DNA of 43,127 bases from a virus (lineage: Duplodnaviria; Heunggongvirae; Uroviricota; Caudoviricetes): IMG/VR virus record IMGVR_UViG_2529293240_000022, one strand, 5' to 3'. The notes beneath the pieces were generated by a model that saw only the letters and a list, made by a program, of their open reading frames with translations, was not told the DNA's origin and did not search any database. The translations under genes and the position numbers were made by a program. Below, one piece after another: positions 3,320 to 43,127 of the stretch (within the stretch, counting starts at the first letter, position 1; each line of letters starts with the position of its first letter).

Positions 3320-3791
3320 TAAAAAGAGCGGTACCAGCCGGAAGCAAGTGTACAAACTGGTACCGCCAAAGCAGTGGCTGTTGTGGTGGGCTTGTCACTT
3401 AAGCGTATGGTCAACCTGACAACCCGGTGTCCTCAACGGGGAAGGAATAACCCCGCCATACTTACCGCCGCGCCATTTCGCGGATTACCACAACGCTGAG
3501 AGCACTTAGCCAGTTACGGCACCATACTTTGTCGCGGTTCCATAAATGCCCTCATCGTTGCACCCTGGTCTCTTCCCAGGCGTCAAACCGAATCGCCACG
3601 CTGGTTAGGCGTCTTATCAGCATCATCATTGACTTGCACATTCCGGCTACCTGGTTTGTTTGCCCGAGCAAGGAGTGGATTGTCCCCTTTAACGTCCCCA
3701 GACCGCTAACGACGCATGTGCCATACGCCGTGTTACAACCAAATTTTGTTAGTACCTTGTTTGTTGGTCTGGAAAGAAAGATAAAATGAAG

Positions 3792-3830
3792 TTGCGCATT
3801 ATGCAAGTATTTTTGTTGCGAGATATGCAA
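3792..3830 (-). promoter_or_regulatory. OL-like operator pair overlapping a putative leftward early promoter (pL)
   Basis: two 15-bp sites TTGCGCATTATGCAA (3792-3806) and TTGCGAGATATGCAA (3816-3830); on the minus strand a -35 TTGCAT / -10 TATCTT pair overlaps them. Confidence 0.5.
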
Positions 3831-3840
3831 TTTGATGGGT

Positions 3841-3865
3841 AATGAAAAGCCACCTTCGGGTGGCT
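3841..3865 (-). terminator. Rho-independent terminator downstream of the cI-like gene
   Basis: stem AGCCACC, loop CGAA, stem GGTGGCT followed by TTTCATT on the minus strand. Confidence 0.6.
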
Positions 3866-3885
3866 AATTGATGAGGAGGTAAGGG

Positions 3886-4578
3886 TTAATTGTGTCGCTT
3901 AAGGGTTTGTGACTGGCTGATTAAGACCTTTCCAAAGACCATAAACCGGTGTTCATTTTCGCTGGTAATTCCCCATTCACGATAAATCTGGTTATCAGAA
4001 ATCACCAGTAGTTTGTCAGGTATCATTTGCAGTCGTTTGACATAAATTTTATCATCAAAACCAAATACATAGATACCATCTCCATCAAACTGATTGATAC
4101 TGACATCAACGAAGATGAGATCTCCTGGCTCAATGGTTGGACACATACTGTCCCCACGAACGTTGATAACTTTAATGTGATTTGCTGGCCGTCCGCCAAA
4201 CATCGATACAGCATTATCAGTTCTGTATTCAATGGCATGAATCACATCAATGACATCACCGCCCTGGATAAGGCCATTTCCCGCACTGGCACTGACATCC
4301 AGCATTTCAATACGGAATACATCCTTCACCTGCGCAACATCCTCACTAATACTGTTTTTACATACAGTATTACTTTTGAAGTCTGAGGTAAAGAGATCAG
4401 CAATATCAACACCTAAGCTCCTGGCAATATTACTCAGGGCTTGTTCAGTGAATTGTTTCTGCTTACCTGTTTCCAGGCGTGAGATATTCGCCGCATCCAC
4501 TCCTATTGCTTCAGCGAGATCGGCGATTTTCATGTTCTTCGCCTGGCGAAGTTGTCTGACTCGGTTTCCTATGTTCAT
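3886..4578 (-). CDS. cI: CI-like prophage repressor: N-terminal HTH plus C-terminal S24 (LexA-type) autopeptidase domain
   Basis: 230-aa translation with HTH near the N-terminus, GDSM serine motif and VKRL lysine; divergent from the cro-like gene. Confidence 0.85.
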   Translation of the reverse strand: MNIGNRVRQLRQAKNMKIADLAEAIGVDAANISRLETGKQKQFTEQALSNIARSLGVDIADLFTSDFKSNTVCKNSISEDVAQVKDVFRIEMLDVSASAGNGLIQGGDVIDVIHAIEYRTDNAVSMFGGRPANHIKVINVRGDSMCPTIEPGDLIFVDVSINQFDGDGIYVFGFDDKIYVKRLQMIPDKLLVISDNQIYREWGITSENEHRFMVFGKVLISQSQTLKRHN

Positions 4579-4936: not shown

Positions 4937-5480
4937 TCATCACTGGAAAGTGGAAAAACAGCCTGAGTGGTACGTGAAAGCTGTCAGAAAAACTATCGCG
5001 GCGTTGCCGGGGGGTTACGCTGAAGCTGCTGAGTGGCTGGATGTAACAGAGAACGCTTTATTCAACCGCCTTCGTGCAGATGGCGATCAGATTTTCCCGC
5101 TGGGATGGGCAATGATTTTACAGCGTGCTGCTGGCACTCACTACATTGCGGATGCTGTCGCACAGTCTGCTGGTGGGGTGTTCGTATCGCTTCCTGAAAT
5201 TGAGGAAGTAGAGAACGCCGATATAAACCAGCGCCTGCTGGAAGTCATCGAACAGATCGGGAATTACTCAAAGCAGATTCGTTCGGCAATCGAAGATGGG
5301 GTCGTGGAGCCACACGAGCAGACAGCAATTAATGATGAGTTGTATCTGTCAATTTCGAAGCTCCAGGAGCATGCAGCACTGGTCTACAAAATCTTCTGCG
5401 CTCCAGAAAAGAGTGACGCCCGCGAGTGTGCAGCTCCGGGCGTCGTGGCGTTTTGTGTCTGTGGAGAAACTAACGCATGA
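4929..5480 (+). CDS. CII-like / YdaT-like regulatory protein (assignment uncertain), GTG start
   Basis: position directly after cro with 8-nt overlap; AGGAGG site 7 nt upstream of GTG; family call from memory only. Confidence 0.4.
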   Translation: MGNHHWKVEKQPEWYVKAVRKTIAALPGGYAEAAEWLDVTENALFNRLRADGDQIFPLGWAMILQRAAGTHYIADAVAQSAGGVFVSLPEIEEVENADINQRLLEVIEQIGNYSKQIRSAIEDGVVEPHEQTAINDELYLSISKLQEHAALVYKIFCAPEKSDARECAAPGVVAFCVCGETNA

Positions 5481-6628
5481 ACAGTTTAACGGCAAATAAC
5501 CGTTTGTCGCAACAGCTGGTGGTCAGTGTCGCTGAACACCTGTTGTTACGGCATGAATGCAGATTACCAGATCACCTGGCTGTAAGTAACCACAGAGAAC
5601 TTTACCTGACTGTGGGGGGCGAGTTGTGCAGGAACTTAACCGCTGGTTTCGTGACGGAAGAGGGCTTTATGTCCATGTTATTCGTTGGGAGCCAGAAACA
5701 CAGCGCGTTATCTATCTTCGCAAAGACTACCAGCATGAGTGCTTTAGTCCTTTGTGGAAATTCAGGCGTGATTTTGTTGAGTGTGAAGGACCACCAGCAC
5801 ATTGATTCTGCCATTCCGGGACGTTACACTGTTCAGGCACCTTATAAAGCGGGTGCCGGGATTGGCGTCCTGAAATTGATTACTGAGCATAACCGCGCTC
5901 ATGCGGTTTTTTCGTGTCATGAGCATTGCTACGCCCAAATTATGGTGGGGCGTACAGGGCCGACTTCGGTCGGGCCGGGTTCGGTAGTCTCCGGTAACGC
6001 CAACCCTGTACGTCTCACCACCTCTGTGATTGGCGTCCCATGTGGTGAGTTTTCTAAAAAACTGACTACCGGGGCTGTCACTATGACTACTCTCCCAACC
6101 CTCACTCAACCTGAAATTGCCATCGTTGATGGTCAGGCTGTTACTTCATCCCTGGCTGTTGCCAACTTCTTCTCCAAACGTCATGACGATGTACTGAAAA
6201 AGATCCGCACGCTTGAATGCTCCGCATCATTCACTGCCCGCAATTTTTCGGTGAGTGATTACACCGATTGCACAGGCCGCAAACTACCTTGCTATCAAAT
6301 CACCCGCGATGGCTTTGCGTTCCTTGCTATGGGCTTCACTGGTAAACGTGCTGCCCGGTTCAAAGAGGCATACATAAATGCCTTTAACCAGATGGAAAAA
6401 CTGCTTTCAAAGCCATCCACGCTGAGCGATGCCGCAGATAACGCCAGCGTGCTTTACTCCCACCTGTCGGTAATCCACAAGGTCTGGCTGCAGCAGCTTT
6501 ATCCCATGTTGGCAAAAGCCGAATCTCCGCTGGCTGTTAGCTTGTATGACTATATTAATGATGCTTCGGCGCTGGCCTGCCTCATAAATTTGTCGCTGAA
6601 TCCTTCAGAGGTAAGGGGGCGTAAATGA
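5477..6628 (+). CDS. Rha-family phage regulatory protein, copy 1, with unique 105-aa N-terminal extension
   Basis: Rha-type core (KRHDDVL...LPCYQITRDGFAFLAMGFTGKRA...FKEAYINAFNQME); ATGA overlap with upstream gene. Confidence 0.6.
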   Translation: MNSLTANNRLSQQLVVSVAEHLLLRHECRLPDHLAVSNHRELYLTVGGELCRNLTAGFVTEEGFMSMLFVGSQKHSALSIFAKTTSMSALVLCGNSGVILLSVKDHQHIDSAIPGRYTVQAPYKAGAGIGVLKLITEHNRAHAVFSCHEHCYAQIMVGRTGPTSVGPGSVVSGNANPVRLTTSVIGVPCGEFSKKLTTGAVTMTTLPTLTQPEIAIVDGQAVTSSLAVANFFSKRHDDVLKKIRTLECSASFTARNFSVSDYTDCTGRKLPCYQITRDGFAFLAMGFTGKRAARFKEAYINAFNQMEKLLSKPSTLSDAADNASVLYSHLSVIHKVWLQQLYPMLAKAESPLAVSLYDYINDASALACLINLSLNPSEVRGRK

Positions 6629-7527
6629 TCCGGAATATTTTCAAACTGTTTACCAATCGCCACCAGCACATTGATTCTGCCATTCCGGGACGTTACACTG
6701 TTCAGGCACCTTATAAAGCGGGTGCCGGGCGTGGAAACCCGAAATTCAATATAGAGCACAACCGCGCTCATGCGGTTTTTTCGTGTCATGAGCATCGTTA
6801 CGCCCAAATTATGGTGGGGCGTGCAGGGCCAACTTCGGTTGGGCCGGGTTCTATGTTGACCGGTATTTCCACCCCTGTACGTCTCACCACCTATATGGTC
6901 GTGGAAAGCCTTGGTGGTGAGTTCATTGAATTCAACATAGGGGCTGTCACCATGACTACTCTCCCAACCCAATCTCACCCTGAAATCACGATTATCAATG
7001 GTCGCGTTGTCACCACATCTCTTGCAGTAGCTAATTACTTTACTAAACGGCATGAGCGGGTTTTAGATAGAATTAGAAACCTCGAATGTTCCGCTGAATT
7101 TACTGAACACAATTTTGTGTTAAGTGAATACACCGACGCATCAGGCCGCAAACTCCCTTGTTACCAAATCACCCGCGACGGTTTTGCGTTTCTTGCCATG
7201 GGCTTCACGGGTAAACGTGCTGCCCAGTTCAAAGAGGCATACATCAATGCCTTTAACCAGATGGAGAAACAGCTTTCAAATCCCTCTGTACTGAGCGACG
7301 TTGCACATAACGCCAGCGTTCTCTATTCCTACATTTCATCAATTCATCAGGTCTGGCTGCAGCAGCTTTATCCTATGTTGGCAAAAGCCGAATCTCCGCT
7401 GGCTGTTAGCTTGTATGACTATATTAATGATGCTTCGGCACTGGCCTGCCTCATAAATTTGTCGCTGAACCCTTCAGAGGTAAGGGGGCGTAAATGATCC
7501 GGAATATTTTCAAACGGTTTACCAATC
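5792..7527 (+). repeat. Tandem direct duplication, two units of about 866 bp (5792-6657 and 6662-7527), mosaic identity
   Basis: first ~70 nt and last ~140 nt of the units are near-identical while the interior is substantially diverged, with an in-frame 3-nt indel; the 36-nt junction ATGATCCGGAATATTTTCAAAC... occurs at 6625 and 7494. Confidence 0.8.
6625..7497 (+). CDS. Rha-family phage regulatory protein, copy 2 (alternative internal start at 6952)
   Basis: paralogue of copy 1 with identical 5' and 3' ends and a diverged core; ATGA overlap. Confidence 0.65.
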   Translation: MIRNIFKLFTNRHQHIDSAIPGRYTVQAPYKAGAGRGNPKFNIEHNRAHAVFSCHEHRYAQIMVGRAGPTSVGPGSMLTGISTPVRLTTYMVVESLGGEFIEFNIGAVTMTTLPTQSHPEITIINGRVVTTSLAVANYFTKRHERVLDRIRNLECSAEFTEHNFVLSEYTDASGRKLPCYQITRDGFAFLAMGFTGKRAAQFKEAYINAFNQMEKQLSNPSVLSDVAHNASVLYSYISSIHQVWLQQLYPMLAKAESPLAVSLYDYINDASALACLINLSLNPSEVRGRK

Positions 7528-11954: not shown

Positions 11955-11971
11955 TTTTGTGGAGAAAGTTG

Positions 11972-12358
11972 ATGCGTGATATTCAGATGGTTCTTGAACG
12001 CTGGGGGGCATGGGCTGCAAGTGGTAACACCGGGGTGGACTATTCTCCGATCGCTGCCGGATTCAAAGGACTTTTACCATCTGCCACTAAACCACGTCCG
12101 GCCTGCTGCGATGATGACGGACTTATCATTGAAAACTGTCTTGCTCGTCTGAAGCAGAAAAAACCTGAGGAGTATTCGCTTCTCATTGCTCATTATTTGT
12201 TGCGAATATCAAAAAGACAGATAGCCAGGACGAGAAAGAAAAGCGAAAAAGCAATACGAATTGAGATGCAGATAGCCGAAGGGTTTATTGACGGATGTTT
12301 GTCTGTGCTGGGGGTAAGACTGGAGATGGACGACTGGCTGCTAAAAAGTAAAAAATGA
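11972..12358 (+). CDS. Q: Late-gene antiterminator Q (QuuD/phage-21-type)
   Basis: N-terminus MRDIQMVLERWGAWAA resembles DLP12 QuuD from memory; GGAGAAAG site; followed by a tR'-like terminator. Confidence 0.7.
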   Translation: MRDIQMVLERWGAWAASGNTGVDYSPIAAGFKGLLPSATKPRPACCDDDGLIIENCLARLKQKKPEEYSLLIAHYLLRISKRQIARTRKKSEKAIRIEMQIAEGFIDGCLSVLGVRLEMDDWLLKSKK

Positions 12359-12915: not shown

Positions 12916-13965
12916 ATGGCTAATACTGTAAAAATATCCAGTTGTGAGTTAATCAACGCCGACTGCTTGGAATTTATCCGGTCGTTACCCGAAAATTCTG
13001 TTGACCTGATAGTCACGGACCCGCCGTACTTTAAAGTGAAGCCTGAGGGCTGGGATAACCAGTGGAAGGGCGACGATGATTACCTGAAGTGGCTGGACCA
13101 GTGTCTGGCGCAGTTCTGGCGGGTGCTGAAACCTGCCGGAAGTCTTTACCTGTTCTGTGGTCATCGCCTGGCATCTGATATCGAAATCATGATGCGTGAA
13201 CGCTTCAGTGTGCTGAACCATATTATCTGGGCGAAGCCGTCCGGACGCTGGAACGGATGCAACAAGGAAAGCCTGCGGGCGTATTTCCCCGCCACAGAGC
13301 GCATTCTGTTCGCGGAACATTATCAGGGGCCGTATCGTCCGAAAGATGCCGGGTATGAGGCGAAGGGCAGGGCACTGAAACAGCATGTGATGGCCCCGCT
13401 GATTGCTTACTTTCGTGATGCGCGCGCTGCCCTGGGGATAACGGCAAAACAGATTGCAGATGCCACAGGAAAGAAAAACATGGTGCCGCACTGGTTCAGT
13501 GCCAGTCAGTGGCAGCTACCGAACGAAAGCGATTATCTGAAATTACAGTCGCTGTTTGCCCGGGTGGCAGAAGAGAAACATCAGCGCGGGGAACTGGAAA
13601 AGCCACACCACCAGCTGGTCAGCACATACAGTGAGCTGAACCGGCAGTATATGGAACTGCTGAGTGAATATAAAAATTTGCGGCGGTATTTCGGTGTGAC
13701 GGTGCAGGTGCCGTACACCGATGTGTGGACGTATAAACCGGTGCAGTACTATCCAGGGAAACATCCGTGCGAAAAACCGGCAGAAATGCTGCAGCAGATA
13801 ATCAGCGCAAGTAGTCGTCCTGGTGATCTGGTTGCGGATTTTTTCATGGGGTCGGGTTCAACGGTAAAAGCGGCGATGGCACTGGGGCGTCGTGCGATTG
13901 GTGTTGAGCTGGAGACCGGACGTTTTGAGCAGACAGTCAGGGAAGTTCAGGATTTAATCGTTTGA
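12916..13965 (+). CDS. Beta-class DNA amino-methyltransferase (N6-adenine or N4-cytosine), apparently orphan
   Basis: DPPY motif near N-terminus (VTDPPYF) and FxGSG motif near C-terminus (DFFMGSGST); no adjacent endonuclease-sized ORF. Confidence 0.8.
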   Translation: MANTVKISSCELINADCLEFIRSLPENSVDLIVTDPPYFKVKPEGWDNQWKGDDDYLKWLDQCLAQFWRVLKPAGSLYLFCGHRLASDIEIMMRERFSVLNHIIWAKPSGRWNGCNKESLRAYFPATERILFAEHYQGPYRPKDAGYEAKGRALKQHVMAPLIAYFRDARAALGITAKQIADATGKKNMVPHWFSASQWQLPNESDYLKLQSLFARVAEEKHQRGELEKPHHQLVSTYSELNRQYMELLSEYKNLRRYFGVTVQVPYTDVWTYKPVQYYPGKHPCEKPAEMLQQIISASSRPGDLVADFFMGSGSTVKAAMALGRRAIGVELETGRFEQTVREVQDLIV

Positions 13966-14014
13966 AACGGATGAGATTGCAGTATTAATTCCGTAACGTT
14001 ATTATTCTGCGCGC

Positions 14015-14090
14015 GGCCCTTTAGCTCAGTGGTGAGAGCGAGCGACTCATAATCGCCAGGTCGCTGGTTCAAATCCAGCAAGGGCCACCA
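14015..14090 (+). tRNA. ileZ: tRNA with CAU anticodon, tRNA-Ile2 (lysidine)-like, ileZ-like
   Basis: cloverleaf folded by hand: 7-bp acceptor stem GGCCCTT/AAGGGCC, anticodon loop CTCATAA, T-loop TTCAAAT, 3' CCA; closely resembles E. coli ileX. Confidence 0.8.
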
Positions 14091-14099
14091 TATCACATA

Positions 14100-14176
14100 C
14101 CGCCATTAGCTCATCGGGATAGAGCGCCAGCCTTCGAAGCTGGTTGCGCGGGGTTCGAGTCCTCGATGGCGGTCCA
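14100..14176 (+). tRNA. tRNA-Arg (anticodon UCG), argN-like
   Basis: cloverleaf folded by hand: acceptor CCGCCAT/ATGGCGG, anticodon loop CTTCGAA, T-loop TTCGAGT, 3' CCA. Confidence 0.7.
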
Positions 14177-14189
14177 TTATCTGTACCCT

Positions 14190-14266
14190 GCGTTGTTAGC
14201 TCAGCCGGACAGAGCAATTGCCTTCTAAGCAATCGGTCACTGGTTCGAATCCAGTACAACGCGCCA
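14190..14266 (+). tRNA. tRNA-Arg (anticodon UCU), argO-like
   Basis: cloverleaf folded by hand: acceptor GCGTTGT/ACAACGC, anticodon loop CTTCTAA, T-loop TTCGAAT, 3' CCA. Confidence 0.75.
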
Positions 14267-14280
14267 GACTTATTTTTCCC

Positions 14281-14305
14281 GGCTCGCTTTTGCGGGCCTT
14301 TTTTT
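14281..14305 (+). terminator. Rho-independent terminator after the tRNA cluster
   Basis: stem GGCTCGC / GCGGGCC (one G-U pair), loop TTTT, then T7. Confidence 0.5.
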
Positions 14306-14501
14306 AAATGTCTCACAATTCAGACGGTTGACAGTTGTCTGTTTTGCGGGGAGTTTGTTAAAAGAAACTGGCATGGTGAATCCCCCTGTGCGGAGGGGCA
14401 ATCAGCGAGTAGGTATATGGGATAATCGCGGATTCAGGTGCTGGTACTGAATTCACCGGGAGGCACCCGGCACCATGCAATGGCACATAGCGCCACTCTC
14501 C

Positions 14502-14561
14502 AGCCCCTCTCCGGAGGGGCTTTCTTATGGACAAAAAAAGCCCGCGCTGGGAGACGCGGGC
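14502..14561. terminator. Back-to-back hairpins in the tRNA to nanS-p spacer
   Basis: plus-strand AGCCCCTC-TCCG-GAGGGGCT (14502-14521) then TTCTT; minus-strand terminator GCCCGCG...CGCGGGC (14540-14561) preceded by A7. Confidence 0.4.
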
Positions 14562-14754
14562 GGCAAGGAATAAACAACAAAACGTGAAGTAATATTTCAG
14601 CTGGCGAATAATATCCGACAGTAATCACTCTGCGCAATAGCGCGGCCTTTTTCGTATTGCGGGCTGTTGTCTCTCTTCTGCCATTGTCCTGTAACTTCCG
14701 GACTTCAGCCCGCTCCTCATTTTACTCACAATATTATCCCGGCCGGGAGGATTC

Positions 14755-16608
14755 ATGGCATTTAAACACTATGATGTTGTCAGGGCGGCGTCGCCGTCAG
14801 ACCTTGCGGAAAAGCTGACACACAAACTGAAAGAGGGCTGGCAGCCATATGGCGGACCGGTTGCCATTACGCCGTACACACTGATGCAGGCGGTGGCTAT
14901 TGAAGGAGATCCACAGGTCGGCCCTTCATCTGAGCCGGACTGGTTCTACGTGGTTGTGCTTGCCGGACAGTCCAACGGCATGGCCTACGGTGAAGGGCTT
15001 CCGTTACCGGATTCTTACGATGCTCCGGATCCGCGCATTAAACAGCTGGCGCGCCGCAGCACGGTAACTCCGGGTGGAGAGAGTTGTACGTATAACGACA
15101 TCATCCCGGCTGACCACTGTCTGCATGATGTGCAGGATATGAGTACGCTGAATCATCCGAAGGCAGACCTGAGCAAAGGGCAGTACGGCTGTGTCGGCCA
15201 GGGCTTACATATTGCCAAAAAACTGCTCCCGTATATCCCGAATAACGCGGGGATCCTGCTGGTACCATGCTGTCGTGGTGGTTCGGCATTCACCCAGGGC
15301 GCGGAGGGGACATTCAGTGCGGACGCGGGGGCCAGCCAGGATTCGGCGCGCTGGGGTGTGGGTAAACCGTTATATCAGGACCTGATTGCGCGCACTAAAG
15401 CTGCATTACAGAAGAACCCGAAAAATGTGTTGCTGGCGGTGTGCTGGATGCAGGGAGAGTTTGACATGAGCGCCGCCACCTACGCACAGCAACCTGCGCT
15501 GTTTACAGCCATGCTGAAGCAGTTTCGTGCTGACCTCACTGTGTTTAACGCGCAGTGTCATGGTGGCAGTGCTGTAAATGTGCCGTGGATTTGTGGTGAC
15601 ACGACGTATTACTGGAAAAACACCTACGGCACGCAGTACAACACCATTTACGGGGCGTACAAAAACAGGGAGAGTGAGGGCGTTTATTTTGTGCCCTTCA
15701 TGACAGACGGTAACGGCGTCAATACCGCCACTAACGCGCCGGCAGAAGATCCGGATATTCCGGCATCAGGATATTACGGTGCGGCATCGAGAACGAATGG
15801 AAACCAGGTATCATCAAACCGCCCGACACATTTCAGTTCATGGGCGCGCAGGAGCATTATTCCGGATCGTATGGCAACCGCTATTCTGAACGCAGCCGGG
15901 CGCACCTCAGCCTTCATCAGTGGTAAGGCACCGGAAATCAAACCCTCGCCCGGCGGCGACACGCCATCGGGGCCGCCTGAAGATGCATCCGTACGCACAA
16001 TCTCCCTGCTGCCGACAGCCGGAGAGGCTGCTGCGCAGGGCTGGACCATTAAGGACGGCGGAATTCAGTTGTCGGGTGGTGTATTTAAGATCGCCAAGCA
16101 GAGCAATAAAACCTGGTCCCTGATGCATCCGGTGGATGACGCAGTCTCCCTGCTGACACGGGGTGGCAGACTGAGCTGTAAGTTTCGACTGTCAGGCGCA
16201 CTGACCAACAACCAGTTCGGTCTGGGAATTTATCTGTATACCGATGTAGCGTTACCTGACGTCGTGGCGATGACCGGGACTGGTAACCCGTTCCTGATGT
16301 CGTTCTTCACCCAGACCACAGACGGCAAACTGAATCTGATGCATCACAAGAAAGCCGGAAACACAAAGTTGGGCGAGTTCGGGAATTACAGTAACGACTG
16401 GCAGACGCTGGAGCTGGTGTTCACCGCCGGCAGTGCCACGGTTACTCCGAAACTGAATGGAGTGGCTGGCCCGGCATTCCAGGTCATAAAAGACAGTCTG
16501 ACACTGGGACTGAATGCGTTGACGCTGACGGATGTTACAAAAAATGCAGCGTATGGCGTTGAGATAGAAAGTCTGGTGCTGGAGATAAATGCACCGGCAT
16601 CATCATAA
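14755..16608 (+). CDS. NanS-p-like prophage sialate O-acetylesterase (N-terminal DUF1737-like region plus SGNH hydrolase)
   Basis: 617-aa translation with GQSN motif (VVLAGQSNGMAYGEG); position between tRNAs and lysis genes as in Stx phages; GGGAGG site. Confidence 0.65.
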   Translation: MAFKHYDVVRAASPSDLAEKLTHKLKEGWQPYGGPVAITPYTLMQAVAIEGDPQVGPSSEPDWFYVVVLAGQSNGMAYGEGLPLPDSYDAPDPRIKQLARRSTVTPGGESCTYNDIIPADHCLHDVQDMSTLNHPKADLSKGQYGCVGQGLHIAKKLLPYIPNNAGILLVPCCRGGSAFTQGAEGTFSADAGASQDSARWGVGKPLYQDLIARTKAALQKNPKNVLLAVCWMQGEFDMSAATYAQQPALFTAMLKQFRADLTVFNAQCHGGSAVNVPWICGDTTYYWKNTYGTQYNTIYGAYKNRESEGVYFVPFMTDGNGVNTATNAPAEDPDIPASGYYGAASRTNGNQVSSNRPTHFSSWARRSIIPDRMATAILNAAGRTSAFISGKAPEIKPSPGGDTPSGPPEDASVRTISLLPTAGEAAAQGWTIKDGGIQLSGGVFKIAKQSNKTWSLMHPVDDAVSLLTRGGRLSCKFRLSGALTNNQFGLGIYLYTDVALPDVVAMTGTGNPFLMSFFTQTTDGKLNLMHHKKAGNTKLGEFGNYSNDWQTLELVFTAGSATVTPKLNGVAGPAFQVIKDSLTLGLNALTLTDVTKNAAYGVEIESLVLEINAPASS

Positions 16609-42543: not shown

Positions 42544-43127
42544 TGGCATTCAGAATGAGTGAACAACCACGGACCATAAAAATTTATAATCTGCTGGCCG
42601 GAACTAATGAATTTATTGGTGAAGGTGACGCATATATTCCGCCTCATACAGGTCTGCCTGCAAACAGTACCGATATTGCACCGTTAGATATTCCGGCAGG
42701 CTTCGTGGCTGTTTTCAACAGTGATGAGTCATCGTGGCATCTCTTTGAAGACCATCGGGGTAAAACGGTTTATGACGTGGCTTCCGGCGACGCGTTATTT
42801 ATTTCTGAACTCGGTCCGTTACCGGAAAATGTTACCTGGTTATCGCCGGAAGGGGAGTTTCAGAAGTGGAACGGCACAGCCTGGGTGAAGGATACGGAAG
42901 CAGAAAAACTGTTCCGGATCCGGGAGGCGGAAGAAACAAAAAACAACCTGATGCAGGTAGCCAGTGAGCATATTGCGCCGCTTCAGGATGCTGCAGATCT
43001 GGAAATTGCAACGGAGGAAGAAACCTCATTGCTGGAAGCCTGGAAAAAGTATCGGGTGTTGCTGAACCGTGTTGATACATCAACTGCACCTGATATTGAG
43101 TGGCCTACGAACCCTGTCAGGGAGTAA
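42543..43127 (+). CDS. tfa: Tail fibre assembly protein (Tfa)
   Basis: 194-aa translation typical of lambdoid Tfa; TAATG overlap with stf. Confidence 0.8.

Follow-up and report, generated by a model that had tools for sequence, protein, structure and literature searches.

Convergent Hfq-binding sRNA genes very probably occupy the spacer at the empty stx site of a lambdoid prophage

The spacer that separates the tRNA genes from the first late gene in the prophage studied here is very probably a dyad of convergent, independently transcribed Hfq-binding sRNA genes, placed at the moron site of a lambdoid prophage that is free of stx. The window (the whole stretch of DNA analysed, 43,127 nucleotides of IMG/VR record IMGVR_UViG_2529293240_000022) holds this spacer at 14306-14754, in the gap between the end of a tRNA-Arg(TCT) gene at 14266 and a 617-aa ORF at 14755-16608. 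A preliminary description had noticed convergent hairpins in the spacer and suggested, among other readings, a small-RNA locus. This suggestion was borne out: the plus-strand hairpin ends an sRNA of the STnc100 family, and the minus-strand terminator ends a second, convergent sRNA of the EcOnc08/21 type. Between the two terminator hairpins there are 18 nt, and the 3′ ends of the mature RNAs meet without overlap. Transcription, Hfq binding and RIL-seq partners are taken from the literature on near-identical copies, whereas we infer the 5′ ends, the choice of -35 element, the short minus-strand form and a role in insulation.

The pair as such, STnc100/EcOnc05 together with EcOnc08/21, is already known and is ordinary for prophages of this kind. 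Specifically, Tree et al. 2014 reported that the moron site 3′ of pR′ ‘carried convergent sRNA genes’, with such pairs in eight prophages of the Sakai strain (Sp3, 4, 5, 9, 10, 11, 15 and 17), among them EcOnc27 and EcOnc02/AsxR of Sp5, located 3′ of stx2B (PMC4104026); the term ‘dyads of Hfq-binding sRNAs’ comes from a later review (PMC7873438). The coordinates in Table S2 of the former study refer to an older version of the Sakai genome (AsxR lies about 135 nt higher in NC_002695.2 for Sp5, while the offset at Sp3 is 0), and the assignments made here were therefore anchored on exact matches of the northern probes. What is new is small and inferential, namely the exact junction of the empty site, the conservation data for a TTGACA box, a promoter scaffold common to AsxR and AgvB, a short form of the minus-strand RNA, and a third plus-strand hairpin that resembles PasD terminators.

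The setting of the spacer is given by the following features.

14015-14266, plus strand: tRNA cluster of three phage genes (ileZ-type CAT, argN TCG, argO TCT), from ARAGORN and Rfam tRNA matches
14281-14305, plus strand: intrinsic terminator of the tRNA cluster, hairpin 14281-14298 followed by T7 (dG -14, z -3.65)
14305-14308, no strand: empty stx (moron) insertion point, 4 nt, from blastn breakpoints against the Stx2a phage LC645409
14755-16608, plus strand: NanS-p-like sialate O-acetylesterase, 617 aa (Pfam DUF1737, SASA, DUF6645)

The three tRNA genes were placed by ARAGORN at 14015-14090 (CAT), 14100-14176 (Arg-TCG) and 14190-14266 (Arg-TCT), and the names ileZ, argN and argO are those given to the same tRNAs in the annotation of 933W and of Sakai Sp4. 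Further 5′, Pfam matches identify a DUF968 protein, the antiterminator Q (11957-12358) and an N6/N4 DNA methylase (12916-13965). The esterase, labelled ‘SASA family carbohydrate esterase’ by PGAP, is the first late gene 3′ of the spacer, and is followed by an IS3-family element, a P21-type holin (18002-18310) and a lysozyme (18710-19243); no PasA homologue was found 3′ of the esterase, where the IS3-family element occupies its place. With Q, the methylase and the tRNAs upstream and the holin and lysozyme downstream, the spacer must lie within the Q-dependent late operon of a lambdoid prophage, and this position (3′ of Q, 5′ of the lysis genes) is the one expected of STnc100. The gene layout is shared with 933W, VT1-Sakai and Sp4. 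The spacer is 99.1% identical to that of Sakai Sp4 (E. coli O157:H7), with four mismatches and no gaps, and 99.6% identical to that of a prophage of O104:H4 strain 2011C-3493. More broadly, the region 13966-14754 is matched in part in 3338 of 5426 complete E. coli genomes, and over at least 80% of its length in 953 of them.

A consensus scan of 13900-14900 returned five terminator-like sites, compared with 1.1 +/- 1.2 in shuffled sequences. Two plus-strand sites among them had not been listed in the preliminary description: the hairpin 14281-14298 with its T7 tract, whose terminator is homologous to the one annotated in 933W as ‘terminator upstream of the stx genes’, and a weaker hairpin at 14630-14645 followed by CCTTTTT.

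The plus-strand gene and its parts are as follows.

14328-14364, plus strand: probable STnc100 promoter region, a putative role based on motif conservation
within that region, plus strand: candidate promoter elements TTGACA, TTGTCT, GAGTTT and TGTTAAAAG
14342-14532, plus strand: STnc100-family sRNA gene (= EcOnc05 of Sakai Sp4), Rfam RF02076
14371-14478, plus strand: STnc100 structured core, from the Rfam structure line and RNAalifold
14502-14530, plus strand: STnc100 terminator, hairpin 14502-14521 with the weak U-tract UUCUUAUGG, from Rfam, the terminator scan and folding

The match to RF02076 covers the model from end to end (1-206 of 206) and scores 139.2 bits against a gathering score of 47 (E = 8.6e-31). 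The family has been described under several names, EcOnc05, EcOnc06 and EcOnc27 in E. coli O157 Sakai and sRNA103 in EDL933, and PasD is a relative. In the core, a closing helix is formed by GCAUGGUG (14371-14378) and CACCAUGC (14471-14478) and encloses hairpins at 14382-14398, 14430-14454 and 14456-14470; the helix set of the family (closing helix, hairpins and terminator stem-loop) is complete in the window save for the variable third hairpin. The GC hairpin at 14502-14521 noted earlier was found as described, with 8 bp followed by TTCTTATGG, and it folds with dG -18 kcal/mol (z = -3.4, with 0 of 200 shuffles as good). Since it coincides with the terminator stem of the RF02076 model, this hairpin is the 3′ end of STnc100. 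The window copy thus shares with other members the full-length covariance match, the closing helix, the hairpins, the terminator and the location 3′ of Q, tRNAs and stx and 5′ of the esterase and lysis genes, and differs in being a short, 108-nt core variant that lacks most of model positions 64-89, in its weak U-tract, and in adjoining an empty stx site instead of stx2B.

A further 120 STnc100 loci were drawn from IMG/VR with a 25-nt word of the core. These loci comprise 34 distinct cores, the commonest of which is the 108-nt core of the window. RNAalifold on 20 variants gave 28 pairs; the five that show compensatory changes belong without exception to the 14430-14454 hairpin, and the remaining core helices do not vary, in part because the search word itself fixed them. 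Expression of near-identical copies has been documented: the EcOnc05 northern probe of Tree et al. 2014 is perfectly complementary to 14400-14434, EcOnc05 of Sp4 is a plus-strand, Hfq CRAC-positive RNA of about 222 nt on the northern blot (PMC4104026, Table S2), and EcOnc06, which has the core type seen in the window, measures about 177 nt (PMC4104026).

The start of the plus-strand RNA is less easily placed. The preliminary description had pointed to a perfect TTGACA box at 14328-14333 that lacks a good -10 element, which is accurate: GAGTTT (14351-14356), 17 nt downstream, is a weak -10 with two of six matches (A2 and T6). A lone TTGACA is statistically uninformative (10 in the window, 26.9 expected), and the box matters because its position is fixed in relatives, not because of one occurrence. 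Specifically, 13 of the 38 promoter variants, which account for 70 of 121 loci, have TTGAC(A/T) at a distance of exactly 43 nt 5′ of GCATGGTG. A second hexamer, TTG(T/C)(C/T)(T/G), occurs 7 nt 3′ of the TTGAC(A/T) position in at least 21 of the 38, in the forms TTGTCT, TTGCCT and TTGCCG, and is present in some variants without TTGACA; in the window it is the -35-like TTGTCT at 14335-14340. Nearly all promoter variants carry TTTGTTAAAA, and TTTGTTAAAAG (14354-14364), a possible TG-extended -10, is near-universal as well. The box is plausibly the -35 element of STnc100 and probably not part of a toxin promoter. Two overlapping geometries are possible, between which sequence does not discriminate. 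In the first, TTGACA-N17-GAGTTT, transcription would begin near 14363; the second joins TTGTCT-N18 to a TG-extended TAAAAG and would place the start near 14371, which matches where PasD2 begins. The RNA would measure about 160-170 nt in both cases, which agrees with the ~177 nt of EcOnc06 but disagrees with the ~222 nt of EcOnc05.

On the opposite strand the following features were recognized.

14533-14714, minus strand: long form (EcOnc08 + EcOnc21), from EPEC coordinates and sequence and the probe match
14533-14602, minus strand: predicted short form of about 70 nt, EcOnc08-type, from a 14-variant alignment, with the 5′ end placed by AsxR promoter homology
14608-14637, minus strand: proximal promoter, -35 TTGCGC at 14637-14632, 18-nt spacer, -10 TATTAT at 14613-14608, from conservation and AsxR/AgvB homology
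14733-14761, minus strand: candidate distal promoter, ATGCCA-N17-GATAAT, putative start near 14726, from promoter scans
14630-14653, plus strand: weak terminator-like hairpin CUGCGC-AAUA-GCGCGG with CCUUUUU, from the terminator scan (folding z -1.7)

The minus-strand terminator that had been proposed at 14561-14540 is indeed present, as a stem of 8 bp, seven of them G-C, with a U7 tract behind it (read on the plus strand as A7, 14533-14539), and folds with dG -16.9 (z = -4.4, 0 of 200 shuffles as good). The minus strand of 13900-14900 matches no Rfam family even at E <= 10, and the identification comes from published homologues. The northern probe for EcOnc08/21/42 is identical to the plus strand at 14607-14641, and a probe of plus-strand sequence detects minus-strand RNA; EcOnc08 and EcOnc21 of Sp4 are recorded on the minus strand, with about 271 nt on the northern blot (PMC4104026, Table S2). 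In EPEC E2348/69, the 182-nt RNA E2348C_1409.E2348C_1408.IGR is listed as a homologue of EcOnc08/21/42 (Pearl Mizrahi et al. 2021, PMC8550237) and corresponds to 14533-14714 of the window. The window is 99.5% identical to the EPEC PP6 locus over 14386-14754, and the 54 nt at the 3′ end of the RNA agree with Fig. S5 of PMC8550237. The likeness to EcOnc08/21/42 comprises 99% sequence identity, a shared terminator and CCUUGCC seed, and the same convergent placement beside STnc100, and no substantive difference was seen. Given the ~271 nt of the Sakai northern, the 5′ end of the long form may lie further upstream than 14714.

Besides this long form, which alone has been seen in relatives, we infer from promoter conservation a short form of about 70 nt that would start from TTGCGC-N18-TATTAT. 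In an alignment of 14 variants the -35 TTGC(GC), the 18-nt spacer, the -10 TATTAT, a CTGAA at the predicted start, CUUCACGU and UUCCUUGCC are invariant, and the promoter elements remain so in those variants that carry unrelated DNA 5′ of the -35. Genes of the AsxR, AgvB and EcOnc03 types are driven by the same block, and the starts of AsxR and AgvB have been mapped experimentally (PMC4104026), hence the prediction of 14602-14533 for the short form. It would consist of the conserved CUUCACGU (14589-14582), a GU-rich tract (14581-14572), the seed CCUUGCC (14568-14562), the terminator hairpin (14561-14540) and the U7 tail (14539-14533), and it coincides with the separate Hfq peak EcOnc08; the site of the published EcOnc08/21/42 probe lies upstream of its predicted start. 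The distal candidate promoter overlaps the ribosome-binding site and start codon of the esterase, and would give about 194 nt, near the 182 nt of EPEC. The lengths expected from promoter motifs (about 170 nt for the plus strand and about 70 or 194 nt for the minus strand) are all shorter than the Sakai northern sizes (~222 and ~271 nt).

Conservation of the minus-strand terminator as a paired structure was examined across variants, where 90% of cells are paired, compared with 26-58% when the alignment is slid. Double changes are seen at two pairs, and in one variant, L046, the stem is entirely different yet complementary; this support by covariation is modest, with 15-29 of 500 shuffles reaching the observed values.

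Information on targets of the minus-strand RNA comes from RIL-seq of the EPEC homologue, whose partners include the 5′UTRs of cfa (767 chimeras) and dppA (197) as well as tir, emrA, pcm, espC, gadX and perA, and whose targets have the motif GGCAAGG in common (PMC8550237). Its complement, CCUUGCC, is found on the minus strand of the window, where it immediately precedes the terminator (14568-14562). Within the leaders, CCUUGCCG can pair with CGGCAAGG of cfa, and the window variant's UUUGUUGUUU can pair with AAACAACAAA, 22 nt 5′ of the dppA start codon. Taken singly, the longest Watson-Crick runs with cfa and dppA (8 nt and 10 nt) do not reach significance, being equalled in 77 of 500 and 33 of 500 shuffles, respectively, and RNAduplex energies of the minus-strand RNA with the two leaders are the same as those of shuffles. 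As the RIL-seq partners are mainly mRNAs and not sRNAs, the EPEC homologue looks more like a conventional mRNA-targeting sRNA than a sponge, and the RNA of the window is most likely a conventional seed-pairing sRNA that uses the CCUUGCC just 5′ of its terminator.

In 933W the slot of this RNA is taken by another one, in that STnc100 is followed there by a convergent AsxR; the alignment shows conserved flanks and a replaced body. AsxR (RF02703) and AgvB (RF02702) resemble the minus-strand gene of the window in slot and orientation (convergent to STnc100), in the upstream block GAAAAAGGCCGCGC..TTGCGCAG with -35 TTGCGC, 18-nt spacer and -10 element, and in the A-run and the GCCCG start of the terminator. 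The transcribed body of the window gene is unrelated to theirs, and their conserved 42-nt 3′ region is absent. Membership in either family was rejected, as covariance-model searches gave no hit at E <= 10 in 13900-14900, while in 933W AsxR is recovered by this search with 88.1 bits. The primary transcripts of AsxR and AgvB, which sponge core sRNA, are 51-60 nt long, and the short form of the window is predicted at about 70 nt.

PasD1 and PasD2 of EPEC (the EcOnc04/EcOnc13 type) share with the window the GCAUGGUG...GCCAUGC-closed core and the place 5′ of the esterase, and differ in having a U-rich tail with a seed complementary to CUCACA and no convergent partner. The window RNA was not assigned to PasD: it has an STnc100-type tail and terminator, and PasD2 aligns over 58 nt only, at 76% (blastn). 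A common ancestry of PasD and STnc100 has been proposed by Zhu, Shabalina and Storz (2026). The PasD-type tail is present in other loci; PasD2 and PasD-type loci end in GGCTGCGCA..GCGCGGCCTTTTTTTT, and the weak hairpin at 14630-14645, which overlaps the minus-strand -35 element, is homologous to PasD-type terminators. What comes after the STnc100 core varies among loci: a partner of the EcOnc08 type or of the AsxR/AgvB type, a PasD-type tail, or other sequence. The region is a mosaic of exchangeable modules.

A more specific proposal, which is tentative and less probable than not, is that the minus-strand gene represents a third body type in a swappable sRNA cassette and yields a GcvB-like short form. 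The scaffold may consist of the GAAAAAGGCCGCGC..TTGCGC-N18-(-10) block together with an A-run/GC terminator that abuts STnc100, and bodies of about 50-70 nt (AsxR, AgvB/EcOnc03 and the EcOnc08 type) may have been recombined into it. The ~70-nt form may then combine CCUUGCC with a variable GU tract, UUUGUUGUUU, whose complement is the C/A-rich site used by GcvB in dppA. If this were true, a GcvB-like regulator would take the position occupied in other prophages by AgvB, an antagonist of GcvB. As for the other module, PasD2 is the top chimera partner bound by CsrA (2026 preprint), and the invariant core of STnc100 might serve as a platform for CsrA binding.

Taken as a dyad, the locus would work as follows. 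On the plus strand, a promoter within 14328-14364 would drive an RNA with a multi-helix core (14371-14478), a single-stranded tail and a terminator (14502-14530); on the minus strand, an RNA of the EcOnc08/21 type would stop at 14561-14540 and its U7, with a long form of about 180-270 nt as in relatives. In the lysogen both RNAs would be made from their own sigma-70 promoters and would act in trans, together with Hfq, on mRNAs of the host and on virulence mRNAs. The plus strand has three terminators in succession, which would at the same time shut transcription of the tRNA and sRNA genes out of the esterase and lysis genes, and upon induction Q-modified polymerase from pR′ would pass all three. 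Both of these expectations derive from established lambda biology.

The last two steps raise the question of whether the hairpins are merely cis-acting bidirectional terminators or insulators of the late operon, without any RNA product acting in trans. This is compatible with the presence, within 380 nt 5′ of the esterase and holin genes, of three terminator-like sites on the plus strand, and with the location of the locus 3′ of Q, where passage would need antitermination. However, a 190-nt element, with a structure supported by covariation and a curated family in Rfam, ends in the plus-strand hairpin, near-identical copies yield discrete Hfq-bound RNAs from both strands with RIL-seq partners, and there is no minus-strand protein gene that the minus terminator could serve, whereas promoter and seed are conserved as a unit. 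Insulation as the sole function is thus quite unlikely, and it is probably a side function of the sRNA pair.

The preliminary description had also considered the spacer as a possible remnant of toxin-locus regulation; in explicit form this would be a decayed stx locus from which the toxin genes were lost while promoter and terminator stayed behind. The description was right that this is the expected stx position, as window 13864-14304 and 14309-14852 flank stx2AB in LC645409: by blastn they correspond to positions 1575-2014 and 3350-3903 of that locus (L002), in which a 1335-bp stx2AB cassette stands in place of the four nucleotides 14305-14308. The suggested alignment to stx-flanking DNA likewise revealed homology, at 86-90% identity, to the DNA on the 3′ side of stx in Stx1 and Stx2 phages, and the DNA from 14309 or 14371 onwards is homologous to that downstream of stxB. 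STnc100 comes after stxB in 933W, VT1-Sakai and LC645409, some 75 nt 3′ of stx2B in the Stx2 phage. This homology exists because the sRNA pair belongs to the conserved phage backbone beside the stx insertion point; what is shared are sRNA genes with their own promoters and no stx regulatory elements. Comparison of stx1 and stx2 cassettes with the window by blastn gave chance matches only (E at least 0.58), and the cassette boundary is clean (4 nt versus 1335 bp), so that what had been taken for a possible remnant is a simple junction of cassette presence and absence, with no decayed stx DNA. Moreover, the sRNA pair is found in many stx-free prophages, as the 953 E. coli genomes counted above indicate. 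A decayed toxin locus is therefore very unlikely; the lambdoid prophage in the window lacks stx, has its moron site intact and carries the sRNA pair that lies beside stx in Stx phages.

It is more improbable still that the plus-strand element regulates the esterase in cis, as a leader of the riboswitch or attenuator kind. Such a leader would be expected on the same strand, upstream, highly structured and with a terminator-like end, all of which holds for STnc100, and a second weak terminator follows. Nevertheless, no cis-regulatory Rfam family was matched, about 220 nt and a convergent sRNA gene lie between the element and the start codon, and family members exist without the esterase: downstream of the PasD-type RNA of Sakai Sp3 come EcOnc32 and then a holin gene, and further downstream contexts were found among family members.

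Finally, that the spacer encodes a small protein can be practically discounted, since its sole notable ORF (14475-14573, 32 aa, with GGAGG 11 nt upstream) has an ATG buried in the conserved closing helix and homologous-ATG translations of 2-68 aa and unrelated sequence across 42 variants, in keeping with the earlier view of the spacer as non-coding, even though one RIBOseq study recorded ribosome footprints on some STnc100 copies in EDL933.

These genes largely escape automated annotation. In the closest genomes PGAP annotates neither sRNA and places a spurious pseudo-CDS over STnc100, and the minus-strand sRNA gene with its promoter, present in 992 of the 5426 complete E. coli genomes, is annotated in none of them and has neither a name of its own nor an Rfam family. 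The pair merits attention when such genomes are annotated. The plus-strand family, on the other hand, has been linked to disease: variation of the STnc100 region 3′ of stx2 is statistically associated with HUS risk (PMC12711010), which makes the function of the family medically relevant, although the window gives no new handle on it. Overexpression of sRNA103 raises fimZ and espA transcripts, and STnc100 has been detected by RT-qPCR in the outer membrane vesicles of two STEC strains.

In the prophage of the O104:H4 strain 2011C-3493 (L005), PGAP annotates neither sRNA of the spacer's convergent pair. Over the STnc100 core (L005 4397-4522, corresponding to window about 14362-14487) it places a minus-strand pseudogene, partial and labelled 'hypothetical protein'; this call is probably an annotation artefact. 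The EcOnc coordinates in Table S2 of Tree et al. 2014 (PMC4104026) fall about 135 nt below those of NC_002695.2 at the Sakai prophage Sp5, and show no shift at Sp3. Before this table is applied to the current Sakai record, its positions should be re-anchored by sequence.

An insertion of ISEc13 divides the STnc100 copy in EPEC E2348/69 prophage PP6, and the convergent minus-strand sRNA there is intact and expressed:

L009 (PP6) 1-2215: STnc100 copy interrupted by ISEc13 at the equivalent of window 14386-14393

The two flanks of the insertion overlap by the 8 bp of that site, which looks like a target duplication. A single IMG/VR contig (L059) carries two STnc100 cores of different types, at 1486-1510 and 1761-1785 (spacing 275 nt), and here the sRNA gene is duplicated in tandem.

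The minus-strand sRNA of the window contains a GcvB-like tract, UUUGUUGUUU (14572-14581), which other EcOnc08-type variants have in altered form or lack through deletion. In prophages where AgvB fills this slot (e.g. L039), AgvB has CACAACAA, a mimic of GcvB targets that is roughly complementary to UUUGUUGUUU.

Upstream, ARAGORN calls the tRNA gene at window 14015-14090 as Met (CAT), whereas the identical gene in 933W and Sakai is annotated ileZ (tRNA-Ile reading AUA), and the anticodon is therefore presumably lysidine-modified. Between the esterase and holin genes, relatives have a second sRNA gene (PasA/PasC; EcOnc51/52) where the window has an insertion element, and no PasA homologue remains in the window:

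16720-17993, minus strand: IS3-family element with HTH_Tnp_1 orfA and rve orfB

Further RNA elements lie elsewhere in the window, beginning with a paired arrangement:

5477-7497: two Ash/Rha-family regulator genes in tandem

Each carries an isrK and C4-antisense RNA pair (5837-6025 and 6706-6894; Rfam), and the tandem units resemble an immunity or antirepressor module of the P1/Gifsy kind that has been duplicated. A full-length Rfam IS009 RNA (225 bits) is found at 42886-43084, in the tail-fibre region close to the window end. Finally, TTGACA is rarer than expected in the whole window: both strands together have 10 copies, and dinucleotide-shuffled sequence has 26.9 +/- 5.0.
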